DNA of 64,000 bases, taken from positions 160,001-224,000 of the forward strand of contig CAWEJX010000020.1 of NCBI GenBank assembly GCA_963809485.1. Reading direction: 5' to 3'. Under the pieces are notes generated by a model. That model saw only the letters and a program-made list of their open reading frames with translations. It was not told the origin of the DNA and did not search any database. The position numbers were made by a program, and so were the translations under genes. Origin of the DNA: an uncultured Acidobacteriota bacterium. Its GTDB lineage: Bacteria; Acidobacteriota; UBA6911. This document shows, piece after piece, positions 5,981 to 20,610 of the stretch (its first letter is position 1; each line of letters starts with the position of its first letter).

Positions 5981-6178
5981 TCAAACCTTCTTCGGCAATT
6001 TGAGGGCAGGAAGCGCGACCAGGCACCCGGCTATAATCAAAACCCTTGTACGCAACGACACCTCCGGGAGAGCGGCGGATACTTTGGGCGAAACCGGAGA
6101 CCGGGGAAAGAACCATATTGCGAATCCGACAGCCAGGAGAATGTAGATCGGGAGCCAGAGGACAATGGCAGTCTTCAC
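5981..6178 (-). CDS. Small membrane protein (65 aa, two hydrophobic segments)
   Basis: AAGGAG SD 7 nt before GTG at 6178; TAIVLWLPIYILLAVGFAIWFF and VLIIAGCLVALPAL. Confidence 0.5.
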   Translation of the reverse strand: MKTAIVLWLPIYILLAVGFAIWFFPRSPVSPKVSAALPEVSLRTRVLIIAGCLVALPALKLPKKV

Positions 6179-6579
6179 GGGTGTACTCCTTATGGGTAGC
6201 GGGCTTCCCTTGTCCCGGTTGGCGCAAAGCATGCCTGCCGGCAGGCTTTCTCCCCGGCAGCTTCCATGCCGACAGAGGCGTTTCGATCCTTGTTATTGTA
6301 GCTACCAATCATCAAAGCGGCCTGGCAAAGCGAAGATTGTCAGTTGCCGACGCCTGCAAACACGGCGCTATCATCTGGAGATTGCTTCCAGTTGCAGTGT
6401 ATGATGGCCGCAAGCAGAATGCATGGGCCAAATCGATTGCGATAGGTCTGGTTTTCCCATCCATGTCACTATGGCAACGGACGGAATGGTGTTTGTGCGC
6501 TTCGCTTAAGGAGAAGCAGAATATCTTCTAAGCCGGTGATAGAGCCAGGAGGCACCGGAGATCCGGTCGAGACTGGAGG

Positions 6580-8121
6580 ATGGCTTTGAATAATTCCCAA
6601 CAGCGGATGAGGATTAGGGCGCTTTTGCCAAAATTTCACATTGTATTTCCGCCCGCCCTGCTGCTTTGTGTGTTCCTTTTGGCCGGCTGCAGCGATGCAC
6701 CCAAGGCAAGTCTCCCCGGGCGGCAGATTCCATTGAATCCATGCCAGCTCAGCGCACCCGGAATGGCCACCCGTCTTCCGGCCGAGTGCGGAAAACTCAC
6801 TGTCTATGAGGACCGCGCAGCCCGGTCCGGGCAGCGTATTGATCTGCACATCGCGGTAATTACGGCCCTCAGCCGGACACCGGAACCCGACCCTCTCTTT
6901 TTCATCACAGGCGGGCCAGGCGAAGCAGCTACGGAAGACTTCGTAAGAGTATCGGACGCCTTCGATAAGCTTAAAGGAAAACGGGACATCGTGCTCGTGG
7001 ACCAGCGCGGCACCGGCAAATCGCATCCGCTAAAATGCGATTCTCCGGCAGAGGAATCGGATGTGAGTGACGATGCCGAATTGGAAAACTCTATACGGGG
7101 ATGCCTCAAACAGCTCGATGGGGACGCCCGTTTTTACAATACCCTGCCGGCCGTTGACGATCTGGACCAGGTCCGCGCCGCCCTCGGGTATGACAGGATC
7201 AATCTGTATGGAATTTCTTATGGCACCCGGGTGGTTCAAACCTATATGAGCAAATACCCGAGACAGGTCCGGGCGGCGATTCTGGATGGTGTCGTGCCGC
7301 AGGATGAGGCCCTCGGCGTGAAAATGGCCAGCGATGCGCAAAAAAGCCTTGACGCCATTTTCGCGCGCTGCGCCGCTGATGATAAATGCAGCCACGCCTT
7401 CCCCGGATTGCCCGGCGAATTTGACGCCCTGCTGCATCGTGTGGACACACAACCGGTGAATATTGCGATCGAGCATCCCTCCACAAGTGAACGGACCCGG
7501 GTCCGTTTCACGCGCGACAGGCTGGGCAGCGCGGTCCGGCTGTTCAGCTACAGTACGGAGTCTGCGGCCCTGTTGCCTTTACTCATCCACGATTCCCAGA
7601 CCACCGGGGATTTCAGACGCCTGGCGGCTCAGTCGATGATTGTCGCTGAACAGGTGCAAGGAAGCATCAACCTGAACGTGCACAATTCGGTCGTGTGCGC
7701 CGAAGATATTCCTTTTTACTGGCGGGACGGCCAATTTGCAGGAGATGCTGGGGCGGAAGGCCGGTCTTATCTCGGCGAGGCGTACCGGAAACTTGAAAAA
7801 ATCTGCAGTCATTGGCCGGCAGCGAGGGTGCCCTCCGCGTTCAAATCGCCGGTCCGATCGGACGCCCCCGTTCTACTTCTATCGGGCCAATATGATCCTG
7901 TAACGCCGCCCAAAAACGCCGATCACGTTGCAGCCACGCTGCCCAACAGCCTTCACCTTGTCGCACCCGGGCAGGGACACGGCGTGTTCATGCGCGGCTG
8001 CGTCAGCAAGGTCGCCACAGAATTCATCGAGCGAGGAACCGCGAGGGGATTGGATACCGGCTGTGTTCAAGATCTGAAACCTTCTCCGTTTTTTCTGAGC
8101 TATGTCGGGCCGACGCCTTAA
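6580..8121 (+). CDS. Alpha/beta hydrolase lipoprotein (TAP-like peptidase S33)
   Basis: Lipobox LAGC, GGPG, DQRGTGKS, GISYG nucleophile, DPVTP, GQGHG. Confidence 0.9.
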   Translation: MALNNSQQRMRIRALLPKFHIVFPPALLLCVFLLAGCSDAPKASLPGRQIPLNPCQLSAPGMATRLPAECGKLTVYEDRAARSGQRIDLHIAVITALSRTPEPDPLFFITGGPGEAATEDFVRVSDAFDKLKGKRDIVLVDQRGTGKSHPLKCDSPAEESDVSDDAELENSIRGCLKQLDGDARFYNTLPAVDDLDQVRAALGYDRINLYGISYGTRVVQTYMSKYPRQVRAAILDGVVPQDEALGVKMASDAQKSLDAIFARCAADDKCSHAFPGLPGEFDALLHRVDTQPVNIAIEHPSTSERTRVRFTRDRLGSAVRLFSYSTESAALLPLLIHDSQTTGDFRRLAAQSMIVAEQVQGSINLNVHNSVVCAEDIPFYWRDGQFAGDAGAEGRSYLGEAYRKLEKICSHWPAARVPSAFKSPVRSDAPVLLLSGQYDPVTPPKNADHVAATLPNSLHLVAPGQGHGVFMRGCVSKVATEFIERGTARGLDTGCVQDLKPSPFFLSYVGPTP

Positions 8122-10416: not shown

Positions 10417-11160
10417 TCATTGAGGCGGGCTTGGCTGATTCCTTTTTGTCCTCAATCTGTTTCGAGGAACCCTTGCAACCATCGGATAAATGGGATTAGC
10501 CAGCGTCCACCATCCCGGTCTCTGATCTTTCACAAATTCGATCCTCGAGACGAATTTAATGCTTTTGTAGGCAAGGTCATAGGGGGCAACCAGTCTCAGC
10601 GGTCCCCCGTTGTCTTCCGGCAAAGGCTTCTCATCCAGTGTCAAGGCCAGCAGGATTTCTCTGTCGGGATCGAGCAACTCACTTAAAGGGAATGATTCTA
10701 TGTAGTGAGTCTGCCCTTTTGGAGCAGATCCGGTCGTTCCCAGTGAGTGAAACAGCACATGGGTTGCATTTGGGTTCGGCTTGACTTTATCAAGGATTGC
10801 CCCAAATCTGAATCCGCCCCATTTGAGATCCGGCACAGACCACCCCTCCACACAATGAAGATCGGACACCTGTTCCGCGCGAGGGAAAGATCGGATATCG
10901 GGGTAGGAGAAAGTACGCGGATCTTTTACCAGCCCATCCACAACCAGCTTGTATTCTTCCCGTTTCCCTTCCTGCCACTCAATAAGGCCGCTTCCGGCAT
11001 CAAACTTAAACCTTTTGTTTTCTACAGTTCTGACAGGAAGCTTCCTGACAAAAACGCCGGCTTGGGATGAGGAAACCGACTCAATCAGCATGATGCTCCC
11101 AATCATTTTCAGAAAAAGCCGTCTGGATATTTCCAACGCATAGTTTATCGCGGTTCTCAT
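10417..11160 (-). CDS. Molybdopterin-dependent oxidoreductase (sulfite oxidase/MsrP-like), Tat-exported
   Basis: SRRLFLK twin-Arg motif, DLHCVEGWSV, NGGPLRLVAP...YKSIKFVSRIE; GGAGGT SD. Confidence 0.85.
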   Translation of the reverse strand: MRTAINYALEISRRLFLKMIGSIMLIESVSSSQAGVFVRKLPVRTVENKRFKFDAGSGLIEWQEGKREEYKLVVDGLVKDPRTFSYPDIRSFPRAEQVSDLHCVEGWSVPDLKWGGFRFGAILDKVKPNPNATHVLFHSLGTTGSAPKGQTHYIESFPLSELLDPDREILLALTLDEKPLPEDNGGPLRLVAPYDLAYKSIKFVSRIEFVKDQRPGWWTLANPIYPMVARVPRNRLRTKRNQPSPPQ

Positions 11161-11387
11161 GACCTCCGCCCTCACAAATAAATATAATATGCCGCAGGGC
11201 AAAGGGCACATTCGGTCAGCTCAATTTGCGCGCATTCCGGGCAAGCTCCCGCCGCAAACGGCAGGGATGGGATGGGCGGGGTGCAATCCGCTGCCGGCGG
11301 CAGGTTTCGGATCGATAATCTGTCCGGGTACACCGTCATCCTGAAAAAATGTGAGGGTTGAATCAGTACCGAGCCGATGGGCGGCAC

Positions 11388-15373: not shown

Positions 15374-16264
15374 TTAATCCCTGACGGGATCACAAACCAG
15401 GATTTCTCCCTTGCCCAGCTCCGATGTGTCCCCCGTATAACGCCGGACCAGGCCATCCCACGCCAGTTCGGGGACCGGCACCTCCAGATCCTGGAACTGC
15501 TTCCACAGGAGCCGCAGGAACACCGGCTTGCAGGTGCAGCTATAAAGAAATGTAGGAAGAAGGCTGGGCTGCTCCATGGCCACGATGGTTCCCCTGGACA
15601 TCCAGGCGCCGGTGCGGATGCCGGCTTTGCCGCCCAGGAAGAGGGTGCCGCCGCGCATCTGGAGTCCGGCGAAATCGCCGACATTGCCCTGGATAGAGAT
15701 CAGCCCTTTTCGCATACGCATGCCGGCTTCGATTCCGGCCGCACCGTCGATCAGGATCGTGCCGCCGCGCATTCCCTTCCGGCTGCCACGATAGGCGGCT
15801 CCGACCTGACCTCCCGCGCTTCCGTGAATCCGGATCAGCCCGCCCGTCATTTCCGCGCCCAGCCAATCTGCAGTATCGCCGTAAACCCTGATGGACCCGC
15901 CCTTCATTTCAGCGCCCAGGTGCATTCCCGAATTACCCCGAATCACGATTTCGCCGGATGTCATACCCTGGCCTATCCTCTTCACCCGCGAGAGGTTGCC
16001 GTGCAATACCAGGCGTCTGCTTTTTTCACCATATATTTCGAAGAAATCGCCCAATCGGCATTTCTGTTTGCCAAGGAGGACAGGAAGCGCGCGGATTTCA
16101 TCCAGCGACAGTTCCGCAACCACATCGGGTGAAAGGACCTCAGCTTCCAGGGGCAGGCCAGGGCGCTCTTTAAGCCGTAATTGAACGAAATCCGCCATCT
16201 CGCCATTCGGCAGGACGTCCCGGAAGCCGGCAGTCGGATCGATGATCAGTGTCTCTGGGCCCAT
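15374..16264 (-). CDS. fwdC: Formylmethanofuran dehydrogenase subunit C
   Basis: PLEAEVLSPD, LGDFFEI.G, repeated GxxMxGG beta-helix, GAAYRGSRKGMRGG, YTGDTSELGKGEI. Confidence 0.92.
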   Translation of the reverse strand: MGPETLIIDPTAGFRDVLPNGEMADFVQLRLKERPGLPLEAEVLSPDVVAELSLDEIRALPVLLGKQKCRLGDFFEIYGEKSRRLVLHGNLSRVKRIGQGMTSGEIVIRGNSGMHLGAEMKGGSIRVYGDTADWLGAEMTGGLIRIHGSAGGQVGAAYRGSRKGMRGGTILIDGAAGIEAGMRMRKGLISIQGNVGDFAGLQMRGGTLFLGGKAGIRTGAWMSRGTIVAMEQPSLLPTFLYSCTCKPVFLRLLWKQFQDLEVPVPELAWDGLVRRYTGDTSELGKGEILVCDPVRD

Positions 16265-16276
16265 TCGCCTAAAACC

Positions 16277-17605
16277 TCACTGACGGCTGGCCTCAATTCC
16301 GGTCCAGTTGCGTATATCAAAAACCCTTGCTTCAACCGACTCGCGGATGCGCCCGATCACCTGTTCGTCGGTCGGATAGGGTGATTTAAGCGCGGGGCGG
16401 AGATGCAGCGGAATCTCATCCATCCGGTAGATGGTTCCGGGCGCGCTGATTCCGGTCGGCGCGGTTGTGATGTGGATGCGAGCAAGGCGGCTCGTGTGGG
16501 AGACTTTCGGGTCCAGCACAATCGTGGGCACGCGTCCAAGATGATCAATGGCGGGCTGCGGCATCGTTGCCCCGGGATCGGCTCCAAGCACCAGCACCGC
16601 ATCAACGTCGCCGCGGGTCAGCAGATCTACTGCCGTGTATTCGCCGGGATTGTAGCGAGGGTATCCGCGGCTGAAGTCCACTCCGAACGGATAGGAGGTG
16701 ATCCACGTCGTCACGGCATCTGCGCCGGTCACGTTGCCGTGGCCGCGCAGGGGCATGGCCACGAAGTGGGCGAACTGGTTCAGCTCCACTCCCAGCGTCA
16801 GGATTGCCGATGAGTTCATGTGCTTGCCCCGCGTCATCGTCAGTCCCATGCCGAAGAAGATGGCTCCAAAACGGGCGCGCTTCATGCGTTCCACCAGGTC
16901 CTGGAGCTGCTCCAGGGCCAAACCAGTTTCTTCCAGGCTTCGGGAATTGATTGGCCGGCCTTTGACCAGGGCCCTCAATGCCGTGATCACCTCGAAATCC
17001 TTACCGGGGCGGATCTGGAGGAAGATATCGGCCGCGCGGGCCGAGGGGGTGCGCCGTATATCCACCAGGACCATGGTCCTCCCTTTTCGGCCGTTGGGCA
17101 CGAAAAGCCCTTTGGGAGTCAGCGAGTAACGGGTGAAGTGCCGTGGATGACATTCTGCCGGGTTCGCGCCCCAGAAGATAACCAGATCCGCTCTGTTTTT
17201 GATTTCGCCGAGCGTCGCAGCGGGTTTGCCGCCCAACTGGGTGGCTATCTCCGTAGGACCATGTCAAAGTGAAGAGTGGCTGTCGATCACCCCACCCAGC
17301 AATTCCGCCAAGCCTACCGCCGTGCGCTGAGCCTCACAGGTCAGGTTGCTGAGACCATAGATGAGCGGGTAGTCTGCGCGCACAAGCAAATCCGCCGCCG
17401 CTTCAACGGCTGTTTCCAGCGTGGCCGGCCGTCCCTCGATCAGTGCTGCCGGGTAACAGGGCTCGGCATTGTGGTTGGTGAACCAGGATTCTCCCAGTTT
17501 GCAAGCGTTTTTGGCCTTGACGATACGGTCCCCTTCGGTATGCACCTCGATATCGTCGCAGGTGCATCCGCAAAATGTGCAAACTGCAGGAGCGACCACT
17601 GCCAT
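16277..17605 (-). CDS. fwdB: Formylmethanofuran dehydrogenase subunit B, probable selenoprotein (Sec at TGA 17264-17266)
   Basis: CTFCGCTCDD...C Fe-S motif; GGVIDSHSSL-TGA-HGP in frame with TLGEIKNRADLVIFWGANPAECHPRH and PLRGHGNV; AAGGAG SD. Confidence 0.9.
17228..17245 (-). promoter_or_regulatory. Candidate bacterial SECIS hairpin (GCCACCC-AGUU-GGGCGGC)
   Basis: 6 of 7 pairs; the loop begins 25 nt after UGA, with G at loop position 2. Confidence 0.6.
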
Positions 17606-17858
17606 CGCTAAACTCTCCTTCGGTCGATTGGGGGGATCATTCGGCGCCCTCACGGGGCGGCGTTTTGAATGCTCATCCCAGCACTCCTCCGCGCCAGCTG
17701 CCGCGTATGCGGCGAGGAAGCCACAGATCGCCGCCTGCGGGCTCCCACGCCCTGATTTCATCCTGCTCAGCGATCGATTCGGGCTTTGTCTGCAGATTCT
17801 CGGGCTGCAGGCGATCCCGGTCCGAAGCTTGCGTTATTCTCATGGAAAACTCCCTGAT

Positions 17859-18206
17859 TCAGGAACCTGCAGAAGGATTTTTTGCCGCTTCGATTTCAAC
17901 TTCCCATCCTTTTTGGGTGGGCATGCCGGTGCCGTCGGTTTGACCTCCCATTAGCATGGATGTCGGCGGTCCGTAAGGAACGAAAACAATCCCAGGAGGC
18001 AGATCGCCTTCAGCGCACTGGAACGTTGCCTCTCCCCACTCACTGCAGACGCGGACATGCATTCCGGGGGAAACGCCCAGGGCTGCGAGATCCTGTACGT
18101 TCATCTGCAACGTGCTCACCATGGTCCGGTACTCTTCACTGTCTTTGCCGATATTGACGTATCTGCCCTGATCGGTTGTCCGTCCCGGAATAAACACACA
18201 GCGCAT
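17859..18206 (-). CDS. fwdD: Formylmethanofuran dehydrogenase subunit D (molybdopterin dinucleotide-binding)
   Basis: IPGRTTDQG...GK...Y, VRVCSEWGE, GIVFVPYGP, TDGTGMPTQKG. Confidence 0.88.
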   Translation of the reverse strand: MRCVFIPGRTTDQGRYVNIGKDSEEYRTMVSTLQMNVQDLAALGVSPGMHVRVCSEWGEATFQCAEGDLPPGIVFVPYGPPTSMLMGGQTDGTGMPTQKGWEVEIEAAKNPSAGS

Positions 18207-18291
18207 AAATGCCCTATCTCATCGTAAAGTCAAAAAATCCGGTGTCAGCCGGCGTCGATCTTCAGGCCTTTTTACGCCTGCCGCGAAACAA

Positions 18292-18320
18292 GTTATACCG
18301 GACCTGCCCGCAATGCGCAA
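18292..18320 (-). promoter_or_regulatory. Putative sigma70 promoter of fwdDBC
   Basis: TTGCGC-N17-TATAAC about 85 nt upstream of fwdD. Confidence 0.5.
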
Positions 18321-18840
18321 GCGTGCTGCCGCCGGCTGGGCAGGGGCAGCTCTTGGGCTACTCTCGATAAGCGTTCCTGGACGAGCCTGGGCGGAAGATC
18401 GGGGCCCAGGAGATCCTGGCCGCTTTTTCCCGGCTGGACCGCTTGCATTCATGTCTCGCAGAGCAGATCCTGTTGGAGCAAGCAGGCCCAGCCGCGACCG
18501 AGGATAAGCGGATTGATGGCAGGATACAGAAGGCTGCCAAACCCTGGAAAAGCAAGTCGCTCGTGAGTCCTCCGGTAAAACCGGAGCGTTGCCGACAAAC
18601 CAAACACAGAACCAGGAACGACGTGCGCATTTGAAGACAACGGCAATTTGCGGCCCGCCATTTTGCGGCTCGGTGCAAGTCCCATCATTATTTGGATTTG
18701 TTCGAAAATTGAGGATTCTGTTTCGCTTCGCCGATAAGATAGGGGGGTGGCACTGTGTCCGGCGGTATAAAATTCCGGCGAGTCTTGCGTTATTGCGAAA
18801 ACCGACTTAAAGTATCACCCGTTCTCTGACTGACGAAACG

Positions 18841-20610
18841 ATGGCCATTATCCGTTTGGTGCTTCAGACTCCCGTCGCCCAGCCGCCCCCGGTTGAACCG
18901 GCGCAACAGTTACTCGCCTCGGCAAATCTAAGCCGCCCTTACTTTCCGGGCCGGCAGCTCCCTTTTGCGATACTGCTTCAAATCGTTGTTCTTCTCACGG
19001 TTATCCTGACCTCCATATTGGGCTACCCGATTGGGGAACCCCGCATTCCCGAATACCTCACAAAAATTGAGCGCAAGATGCCGAAGGTCGTTATTTATCT
19101 TCCGCTGGTCGGCGGCGGGAATTCGGGCATGTTCTTTCCGTTCGCGAAGCCTCCGGAACCGGAGAAAAGGTCGTCCGCCATACGCACCCCGAGAAGAAAG
19201 GGCCTTTCCTACCCCGGACCGCAGCCGATAGTCTCTGATGTTCCAAATCCGACCAATCCCATACAGACTATTCTTCAGCCGGAACTCGAAAAGCCGCCCT
19301 CCCTTCAACCATTGCTGCCGCTCCCTAATATTGTTCAGATGGCAGACAACCGTGCCGACAAGCATCTCAAATTCCCGGAACCGGCCATAAGGCCGCCGGA
19401 GCCGGTAAAGCCCGTCGAACCGAAGCTGCCGGAGCCGCCCAGTGAACAGCCGGATGTGAAAGCTTACGTGCCGACCCTGCCGCTTTTGAACGTGGACAAG
19501 GTGAAGATCGAGCAGCCAAAGCTGGTACTGCCCGAGTTGCAGCCGCCTCCCCCGGAACCTGAACCTCCACCCAAGCAGGAGGCAAAGGTTGCGGAAAATG
19601 CCCCTGCAGCGATCGAGAGTGCCAAAACCGAAGCGGCCTCCCAAGAAGACGAGGCAAAAGAGCCCCCACCTCCGGCTGCCGCCAAAGCTGCAGAAGAGCA
19701 CAGTCTGCTCGCGCTATCCCCTATGCCGGCGGACCAGCCGGCCAAAGTCCCTTACGGCGAGGCCCGAGGGCGCTTTGCCATTTCTCCGGAACCGAATCTC
19801 GCCACTTCGGAAACGGAACCGGGATCCAGGACCGGATCTACGAACCCGATTGAGGAAAAGGACAGTCAAAAGACAATACTCGGCAGCGAAGGAGCCAAGA
19901 CGGAAACAGCTGCGCAGGGCAATCCCGGTCCTGTCAAGGAATCGAAGCCGGGATCCCAGCCGGGAACGGGATCTGGAACGGGTTCCGGGCCAGGCTCCGG
20001 TGCGGGTTCCGGACCCGGCAAGGGGCCTTTCTCGGGAATCACGATCGTGGGCGGAATGCCTGACCCGGGAACTCCTGTAAAGCCATCGGTCGTAAAGCGG
20101 GCTCGAAGGCCTCTGCAAACATCCTATGGACTGACGATTGTTTCGACGGAAACCAGCGGAGGCGGCCTGCCTTACTTCGATGTTTTCTCACACGACCAGG
20201 TCTATACCGTTTATCTCGATATGCGGCGGACCGAACTCGAAATGACCCCCAAATGGATTCTCGAGTTCGCCGTGCTTTCGGGATCAGCCTATCAGGTGAA
20301 CCCGGCCAAGGTCCCAGGCCGGAGCCAGCAAGGGCTTGTGCTGCCGTTCCCTACCTTTAAAGATCAGCCTGCGCTGCCCGTCGATCTGATACGAAAGTAT
20401 TCGGGCAAAATGGTTATCGTTTACGGCGTCGTCAACACCCAGGGAAAAATGGAGCAGATAGCGGTAAAGCAGAGCCCGGACCCGCTTTTCAACGAGCCGG
20501 TCACAAGCGTGCTAAGCAAATGGACCTTCCGCCCGGCCCGCCTCAACGGCCAGATTGTTCCGGTAAAACTGCTGATGGGAATTCCCCTGTGGTCGCCTGA
20601 AAATCCCTAA
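18841..20610 (+). CDS. Pro-rich membrane-anchored protein with a TonB C-terminal-like domain
   Basis: N-terminal TM, long PEP and GSG linkers, C-terminal YGVVNTQGKMEQ...KWTFRPARLNGQIVPV. Confidence 0.7.
   Translation: MAIIRLVLQTPVAQPPPVEPAQQLLASANLSRPYFPGRQLPFAILLQIVVLLTVILTSILGYPIGEPRIPEYLTKIERKMPKVVIYLPLVGGGNSGMFFPFAKPPEPEKRSSAIRTPRRKGLSYPGPQPIVSDVPNPTNPIQTILQPELEKPPSLQPLLPLPNIVQMADNRADKHLKFPEPAIRPPEPVKPVEPKLPEPPSEQPDVKAYVPTLPLLNVDKVKIEQPKLVLPELQPPPPEPEPPPKQEAKVAENAPAAIESAKTEAASQEDEAKEPPPPAAAKAAEEHSLLALSPMPADQPAKVPYGEARGRFAISPEPNLATSETEPGSRTGSTNPIEEKDSQKTILGSEGAKTETAAQGNPGPVKESKPGSQPGTGSGTGSGPGSGAGSGPGKGPFSGITIVGGMPDPGTPVKPSVVKRARRPLQTSYGLTIVSTETSGGGLPYFDVFSHDQVYTVYLDMRRTELEMTPKWILEFAVLSGSAYQVNPAKVPGRSQQGLVLPFPTFKDQPALPVDLIRKYSGKMVIVYGVVNTQGKMEQIAVKQSPDPLFNEPVTSVLSKWTFRPARLNGQIVPVKLLMGIPLWSPENP

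Follow-up and report, generated by a model that had tools for sequence, protein, structure and literature searches.

The fwdB locus

The stretch of DNA analyzed here (the window) comprises 64,000 nucleotides, positions 160,001 to 224,000 of the forward strand of contig CAWEJX010000020.1 in GenBank assembly GCA_963809485.1, which was obtained from an uncultured Acidobacteriota bacterium. On its minus strand, at 16277..17605, lies fwdB, a gene of 442 codons including one selenocysteine (Sec) codon. The product is predicted to be the catalytic subunit of a formylmethanofuran dehydrogenase, carrying a tungsten or molybdenum (W/Mo) bis-pterin cofactor and a [4Fe-4S] cluster. Codon 114 (17264..17266, minus strand) is a UGA that we read as Sec, which is predicted to ligate the metal within the motif U-H-G-P, and a hairpin of the selenocysteine insertion sequence (SECIS) type follows it at 17228..17245 on the same strand. 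Upstream of fwdB are fwdD and an unnamed small gene, and downstream of it is fwdC.

In the list of open reading frames (ORFs), fwdB appears as two minus-strand ORFs, 17264..17761 and 16277..17236, which are in the same frame with a single TGA between them. The TGA at 17264-17266 is the only interruption of the 442-codon frame. When this frame was read through from the ATG at 17605, the translation ...VIDSHSSL-U-HGPTEIATQLGG... was obtained. An earlier note on this DNA had joined the two ORFs into one frame around the TGA, which it had placed after ...GGVIDSHSSL; our coordinates and frame agree with it, and our translation reads ...GGVIDSHSSL-U-HGPTEIATQLGGKPAATLGEIKNRAD... at the junction. The start at 17605 (MAVVAP...) has AGGAG 8 nt upstream and is consistent with the N-termini of homologues. 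The terminal codon of fwdB, at 16277-16279, is also TGA. That is, since the gene itself stops at TGA, this codon has not been reassigned throughout the genome.

Public protein sets, too, contain the gene in two parts. Its nearest entries in the protein database are C-terminal fragments of 317-332 amino acids (7 of the 120 matches listed, including P0002 with 100% identity), and surveys of called proteins therefore undercount bacterial FwdB.

Conservation of the in-frame UGA codon

Relatives of fwdB were collected by scanning one genome per prokaryote species. The scan matched 599 stretches; a relative is encoded in 554 of them, from which we took the best 80. At the aligned codon 114, 79 of these 80 relatives, which belong to several phyla, have TGA, and the remaining one has TGC. 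In more distant full-length homologues from the protein database, this position is occupied by Cys and, in a few cases, by Ser or Thr. The earlier note had raised the question of whether TGA is exchanged for TGC or TGT in orthologues, and it does alternate with TGC or Cys. That the TGA falls on the codon of the metal ligand and recurs in 79 of the 80 nearest relatives is more than chance would give.

The carrier of TGC is a Gemmataceae metagenome-assembled genome (MAG; locus L028), in which fwdB is at 6001-7281. In this locus the hairpin sequence is still present, and neither fwdD nor the small gene is found within 6 kb upstream.

We then considered the codons that follow the UGA in the set of 81 sequences (the window and the 80 relatives). 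At codons 116-120, amino acid conservation was 0.98-1.00 and codon entropy was 0.99-1.80. These codons vary synonymously while the amino acids are kept, which indicates that translation goes on past the UGA. Both halves of fwdB are under constraint at the protein level.

A nonsense mutation or an assembly error could also have placed a TGA in the frame, in which case fwdB would be a pseudogene. The splitting of fwdB by gene callers and the C-terminal fragments among its nearest entries agree with such a view. However, 79 of 80 relatives, spread over several phyla, have the TGA as well, both halves are constrained as protein, and the Sec machinery of the genome is complete, as described below. 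Moreover, metagenome contigs from three independent runs, which represent relatives about 95% identical, span codon 114 and list no other letter there, 54 of their differences not being displayed. The best share of sampled words in any listed metagenome run was 0.21, that is, none reached half. No RNA run is listed for the stretch, and a single run presumed to be RNA yielded just 2 reads, which were 90-95% like it. We regard a pseudogene as extremely unlikely. As a separate observation, the contigs of all three runs break and overlap at the hairpin, within 17219-17248 (ends at 17246-17248, starts at 17219), which is expected if many organisms of a sample have the same stretch.

Another explanation is that the UGA is a true stop and that two polypeptides are made, namely, an Fe-S domain of 113 amino acids and a piece of 319 amino acids restarting at the TTG at 17236. 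Both ORFs are open under translation table 11, and split molybdoenzymes exist, FwdB/FwdD itself being such a split. Against this, the amino acids of the nine codons from the TGA to the TTG (HGPTEIATQ) are kept, and codons 116-120 vary by synonymous changes. The TTG lies inside the hairpin, and no Shine-Dalgarno-like sequence was seen ahead of it. In addition, the split would take the metal ligand and His115 away from both pieces. A real split into two proteins is thus very improbable, as are a nonsense mutation and an assembly error, and we conclude that 16277-17605 is one intact fwdB gene.

The hairpin downstream of the UGA codon

The hairpin (GCCACCC-AGUU-GGGCGGC) consists of a stem of 7 pairs with a central A.C mismatch and the loop AGUU. 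It starts 18 nt past the UGA, and its loop starts 25 nt past the UGA, the sequence and the distance being those given in the earlier note. The hairpin is present in all 81 sequences and is their RNAalifold consensus, and 97.4% of the cells are paired. The TGA and the hairpin, whose joint conservation in relatives that note had singled out as a check, are conserved together.

The codons over the hairpin were also informative. Codons 121-128 had the lowest synonymous-codon entropy of all 8-codon windows in the gene (0.527, compared with a mean of 1.18), and Gln123 and Leu124 were encoded by CAG and TTG, respectively, in 81 of 81 sequences. This entropy minimum together with the fixed codons indicates that the RNA itself is constrained, over and above the requirements of the protein.

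Genes for selenocysteine insertion

The genome encodes selB (391 bits), selA (565 bits) and selD (345 bits), all of which scored over their cut-offs. A tRNA-Sec was also found over its cut-off (70.6 bits), and ARAGORN reported it as SeC with the anticodon TCA. The Sec machinery, which the earlier note had wished to see in the genome, is therefore complete.

The selD gene (L010, G000:C8:80982-81905) itself has one in-frame TGA (...AAG-U-ASK...) and is thereby a selenoprotein gene too. A hairpin of 7 pairs with the loop GGC starts 13 nt downstream of this TGA.

FwdB as a catalytic subunit

The read-through product was compared with TIGR03129, the NCBIfam model of formylmethanofuran dehydrogenase subunit B (curated cut-off, 327.8 bits). 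The score was 508.8 bits, and residues 7-424 were aligned with profile positions 2-421 of 421. Among PDB chains, the product matched 9sfi_Q (399 bits), 8rja_B (383 bits) and 5t5i_B (374 bits, E 1e-110), with alignments to FwdB chains spanning residues 3-425, 4-425 or 6-410.

These alignments also place the residues of the active site. U114 is aligned on Cys118 of 5t5i_B, the tungsten ligand in FwdB of Methanothermobacter wolfeii, and H115 and R287 are aligned on His119 and Arg288, respectively. In 9sfi_Q the residue opposite U114 is printed as X. C9, C12, C16 and C35 are aligned on the four Fe-S cysteines of 5t5i_B and are invariant in the 80 sequences. The CxxCxxxC..C cysteines and the RGHGNV motif containing R287, which the earlier note had described as intact, are thus found in both the translation and the alignment.

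FhcB of methylotrophs belongs to the same superfamily. According to Hemmann et al. 2019 (PMC6926001), FhcB has Ser62 in place of Cys118, His119 and Arg288 are not conserved in it, and it has neither the N-terminal [4Fe-4S] domain nor the FwdD 'fourth domain' that caps the pterin. In our sequence, the Fe-S domain, the equivalents of Cys118, His119 and Arg288, and FwdD are all kept. The match to the FhcB chain 6s6y_B was weak (55.5 bits) and covered residues 53-149 only, whereas archaeal FwdB was aligned end to end. Because the features lost in FhcB are all kept, with an FwdD-like gene upstream and FwdC downstream, the gene encodes a catalytic subunit of the FwdB type rather than a scaffold of the FhcB type, in agreement with the earlier note.

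The fwd operon and the tetrahydromethanopterin island

The fwdD gene (17859..18206, minus strand) encodes a molybdopterin-dinucleotide-binding cap domain of 115 amino acids, the 'fourth domain' of formate dehydrogenases. Its product matched Pfam PF01568 with 41.9 bits (cut-off 26.8) and the NCBIfam FwdD model NF042908 with 74.1 bits, the latter being under the cut-off of 175. The fwdC gene (15374..16264, minus strand) encodes the beta-helix scaffold subunit of 296 amino acids with the GXGXG motif (TIGR03122, 274.1 bits; cut-off 130.65).

A homologue of fwdD was present upstream of fwdB in 74 of the 80 related loci, including many Planctomycetota records, and fwdA was present within the locus in 58. 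The commonest order was fwdD-fwdB-fwdA-fwdC. The order fwdD-fwdB-fwdC without fwdA was seen in the window and, among the 80 loci, in its six closest relatives (L021-L026) only. The closest syntenic relative is L021, an Acidobacteriota record with 94% identity. In two other acidobacterial loci, L035 and L046, Sec-fwdB is located inside an island of the order fae-mtd-ATP-grasp-fwdD-fwdB-fwdA-fwdC-fhcD.

The genome of the window has such an island on another contig, C7, for the tetrahydromethanopterin (H4MPT)/methanofuran pathway. It lies at L117 3728-19151, that is, G000:C7:53728-69151. The profile matches in it include FwdA (758 bits, the only FwdA of the genome), the formyltransferase FhcD (427 bits), Mch (403 bits), Fae (256 bits) and the N-terminal domain of Mtd (94 bits), as well as mptN- and MfnB/D/E/F-like genes. 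A second copy of fwdC, 49% identical to that of the window, is also located there, and the gene order is mtd, a gene of 393 amino acids, fwdA, fhcD, fhcC, mch. No B subunit was found in the C7 island, and Sec-fwdB is the only gene of the FwdB family over the cut-off in the whole genome.

We considered whether a degenerate fhcB might lie between fwdA and mtd of the C7 island, and rejected this candidate: the space is taken by the protein of 393 amino acids, which is ATP-grasp-like only by its position and size beside the ATP-grasp_3 gene of L046. Where L046 has a GHMP-kinase gene, the C7 island has an ORF of 365 amino acids, placed by position only.

Some further genes near these operons were recorded. 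In L038 (7285-8812), and also in L034, L049, L054, L065, L099 and L100, all from Gemmataceae or other Planctomycetota, 0.8-1.6 kb separates fwdB from fwdA; the ORFs in this part of L038 had no Pfam match. A molybdopterin-binding protein of the sulfite-oxidase type (PF00174, 122 bits) is encoded in the window at 10417-11211 on the minus strand, about 4 kb downstream of fwdC. In the closest relative, the gene of this type (L021 9102-10013) is about 0.9 kb downstream of fwdC.

Proposed role of FwdB

Taken comprehensively, we consider it highly probable that FwdB is a catalytic subunit containing Sec114, and that the UGA is recoded under the direction of the hairpin; FwdB and FwdD together (FwdBD) would probably end the H4MPT-linked oxidation of formaldehyde. 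The interpretation of the earlier note is supported, with an active enzyme and its selenium being what the genes would predict.

The steps may be as follows. The hairpin 18 nt downstream would recruit SelB with Sec-tRNA(Sec), and the UGA would be translated as Sec instead of a stop. Sec114 would then be a ligand of the tungsten or molybdenum of the bis-pterin cofactor, and FwdB with the cap domain FwdD would form a formate/CO2 redox site wired to the N-terminal [4Fe-4S] cluster. FwdBD might supply the missing B function in trans to FwdA, FhcD and FhcC encoded on C7. In such a complex, FwdA would hydrolyze formyl-methanofuran and FwdBD would oxidize the formate to CO2, in contrast to the Fhc complex of methylotrophs, which releases formate. 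Since the C7 island has FwdA, FhcD, Fae, Mtd and Mch but no B subunit, FwdB would most likely oxidize formate bound to methanofuran to CO2, as the final step in the H4MPT-linked oxidation of formaldehyde.

The main functional rival is that FwdD, FwdB and FwdC form a stand-alone selenium-dependent formate dehydrogenase or CO2 reductase, which acts on free formate outside the FwdA-FhcD complex. The operons without fwdA in the window and its six closest relatives would suit such an enzyme. So would the C7 island, which has its own fwdC (49% identical) and the order A-D-C, resembling the methylotroph order fhcBADC described by Hemmann et al. 2019 (PMC6926001). In 58 of the 80 related loci, however, fwdA follows fwdB within the operon. 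Furthermore, the C7 island is without a B subunit, none besides Sec-FwdB is encoded in the genome, and FwdC has no known role outside the complex. We therefore think that a stand-alone enzyme is unlikely.

Alternatively, the enzyme might work reductively and, like that of methanogens, fix CO2 onto methanofuran. The formylmethanofuran dehydrogenase reaction is reversible in archaea, and every FwdB feature of the CO2-reducing archaeal enzyme is kept here. Nevertheless, the island encodes Fae and an Mtd-type dehydrogenase, which are marks of the oxidative formaldehyde route in bacteria, and no low-potential ferredoxin or polyferredoxin partner was seen adjoining the operon in the window and nine related loci. 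A reductive enzyme appears quite improbable, and we keep to the oxidation of methanofuran-bound formate as the preferred role.

Several observations weigh against this interpretation. As for the hairpin, it is conserved but does not covary: there was 1 compensatory change, and the observed pairing was reached in 109 of 500 shuffles. The weak covariation can be explained by the stem, which hardly varies. The stem of the window, with its central A.C mismatch, is among the weaker ones (-11.1 kcal/mol; the energies range from -9.6 to -17.6, the median being -14.6). When the region after the UGA was folded alone, z was -0.03, and 94 of 200 shuffles folded as well; that is, the support for the hairpin comes from its conservation and not from its folding energy. 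No Rfam match, either to a riboswitch or to a curated SECIS family, was obtained over 17100-17400 at a permissive threshold. As for the genome, the bin has an estimated contamination of 7.32%, although the window is on its largest contig, and the best MobA match was 124 bits, under the cut-off of 151.85. As for the complex, the operon of the window is without fwdA, unlike 58 of 80 related loci; we assume that FwdBD assembles with subunits whose genes are on another contig. Neither a ferredoxin nor any other partner for electron transfer was found to adjoin the operon in the window or in nine related loci, and we infer the electron acceptor as well as the direction of the reaction.

If the proposed role is correct, the H4MPT pathway of some non-methylotroph soil bacteria would have retained, as its end, a complete formate/CO2 redox site that depends on selenium.

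The small gene between fwdD and fwdB

A gene of 56 codons (17673..17843, minus strand) lies between fwdD and fwdB, with AGGGAG 6 nt ahead of its ATG. The C-terminus of the product is rich in Arg and has the motif W-E-x-[IV]-x-x-G-R-[YF]-x-P-R-R-[ITV]-R-G-S-x-x-G-R-x-L-G-stop. This motif was found upstream of fwdB in 69 of the 80 loci, and two more (L099 and L100) have a variant with RRICGS. The variability at the three codon positions was 0.126, 0.166 and 0.386, which is the signature of a coding sequence.

In the window, the TGA stop of fwdD is followed by the small ORF in the same frame. We considered that it might be a read-through extension of fwdD and rejected this, because in the relatives the small ORF occurs in all three frames with respect to fwdD and the fwdD stops are TAA, TAG or TGA. 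That is, it is a separate gene.

The small protein had no accepted sequence match in Pfam, NCBIfam or PDB, where only chance-level hits were obtained at E up to 10. A profile search with it gave 2513 database clusters; among the 120 best clusters listed, the names were 'hypothetical protein' except for one JGI entry called 'uroporphyrinogen-III decarboxylase'. In the ESM Atlas it matched unnamed clusters only (0.78-0.79). Complex prediction with FwdD and FwdB, the latter given as the two table-11 frames flanking the TGA, returned a score of 0.02, under the mark of 0.32, which counts neither for nor against a contact. An Rfam search over 17550-18850 gave only a chance-level match to CyVA-1 (E 0.36), and no mention of the small gene was found in the literature searched. 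The small gene offers a new lead for work on the bacterial enzyme.

We speculate that fwdD, the small gene and Sec-fwdB may make up a horizontally mobile Se/W-Mo cassette that converts the formate-releasing Fhc pathway of bacteria to a true formylmethanofuran dehydrogenase, forming CO2. In this proposal, which we regard as possible though doubtful, the small protein (40-80 residues) would serve the enzyme as a subunit or assembly factor that is new and specific to bacteria, and the cassette of the window, parted from fwdA, would act in trans with the fhcA-fhcD-fhcC island that has no B gene. If this were true, soil and freshwater Acidobacteriota, Planctomycetota and Rokubacteria would carry a selenium-dependent enzyme which, in reviews on formylmethanofuran dehydrogenases, is still treated as archaeal.

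Distribution of the selenocysteine form

In order to see how often the Sec form occurs, we examined 401 sampled genomes of the phylum of the window. Nine of them, including that of the window, had a match at E <= 1e-60; seven had the TGA, and two, whose matches were 53-57% identical, had no stop. In 301 genomes of the phylum to which the Gemmataceae record belongs, 19 had a match, and five of these had the TGA at 70-72% identity. The remaining matches in that phylum were paralogues 33-61% identical without TGA, one of which has a single TAG.

When the genomes of five relatives were examined, four contained no FwdB-family gene over the cut-off besides the Sec form, and the remaining one had two further genes free of stops. 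Genome G405, the source of L025, which is titled Caldilineaceae, encodes three members of the FwdB family that exceed the cut-off; one has the TGA, and the other two have no stop. This genome may have both Cys and Sec forms, or it may be a mixed bin.

Judged from the sequences compared, Sec-fwdB forms a tight clade, with about 70% identity between phyla, which occurs in about 2% of the sampled genomes per phylum. Such a clade at such an occurrence suggests horizontal spread. Among the related loci are MAG records titled Singulisphaera sp. GP187 and Planctomyces sp. SH-PL62. Cultures under these names, if they exist, would permit a direct test.

Comparison with known systems

The SECIS loop of Escherichia coli fdhF contains G-U, as does the loop here. 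The hairpin of the present gene has a loop of 4 nt and, unlike that of fdhF, begins 18 nt past the UGA. FdhF (PDB 1AA6) is likewise a Sec-Mo-bis-pterin enzyme acting on formate/CO2, and its gene also has a short hairpin after an in-frame UGA. The match between the two proteins is distant (31 bits), and domain IV is a separate protein here.

The similarity to archaeal FwdB/FmdB is much closer. FwuB of Methanopyrus kandleri is said to have been described by Vorholt and co-workers in 1997 as the selenocysteine form of FwdB. In archaea, SECIS elements are located in untranslated regions, whereas the hairpin here is of the bacterial type and lies within the coding sequence, directly after the UGA. 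Compared with the enzyme of M. wolfeii (PDB 5T5I), the present FwdB shows the full-length alignment, the Fe-S cysteines, the Cys/Sec-His pair, the equivalent of Arg288 and a separate FwdD. The differences are that the host is a bacterium, that no genes for the polyferredoxins FwdF/FwdG were seen, and that the context is formaldehyde oxidation (Fae, Mtd) and not methanogenesis. With FhcB of Methylorubrum extorquens (PDB 6S6Y), the present protein shares the superfamily, the H4MPT/methanofuran pathway of formaldehyde oxidation, and the partners FhcA, FhcC and FhcD encoded in the genome.

Selenoprotein forms have also been reported from bacteria. Kim et al. 2016 (PMC4807772) describe fmdB as a selenoprotein gene in the planctomycete P2 (Rhodopirellula), a number of Archaea and two bacteria that are unclassified, and report the operon fmdD-fmdB-fmdA-fmdC in the non-methanogenic P2; the key to a figure includes Acidobacteria. 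Wells et al. 2023 (PMC10100899) later carried out a BLASTX survey that gave 149 bacterial FwdB hits, and stated that Sec proteins are truncated by annotation. A 2026 review lists the family in bacteria and archaea, and its text speaks of methanogens alone. No purified bacterial enzyme of this type was found in the literature searched.

Compared with Sec-FmdB of P2 (PMC4807772), the present system is the same in being a bacterial FmdB with Sec in the active site, in having fmdD upstream, and in the presence of the full Sec machinery. In contrast to the operon of P2, fwdA is absent from the operon here and is encoded on another contig. P2 has a Cys form besides the Sec form; in the present genome there is no B subunit other than the Sec form, and the phylum is Acidobacteriota. 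In conclusion, bacterial Sec-FwdB is already on record, and the present gene is a further example of it in another phylum.

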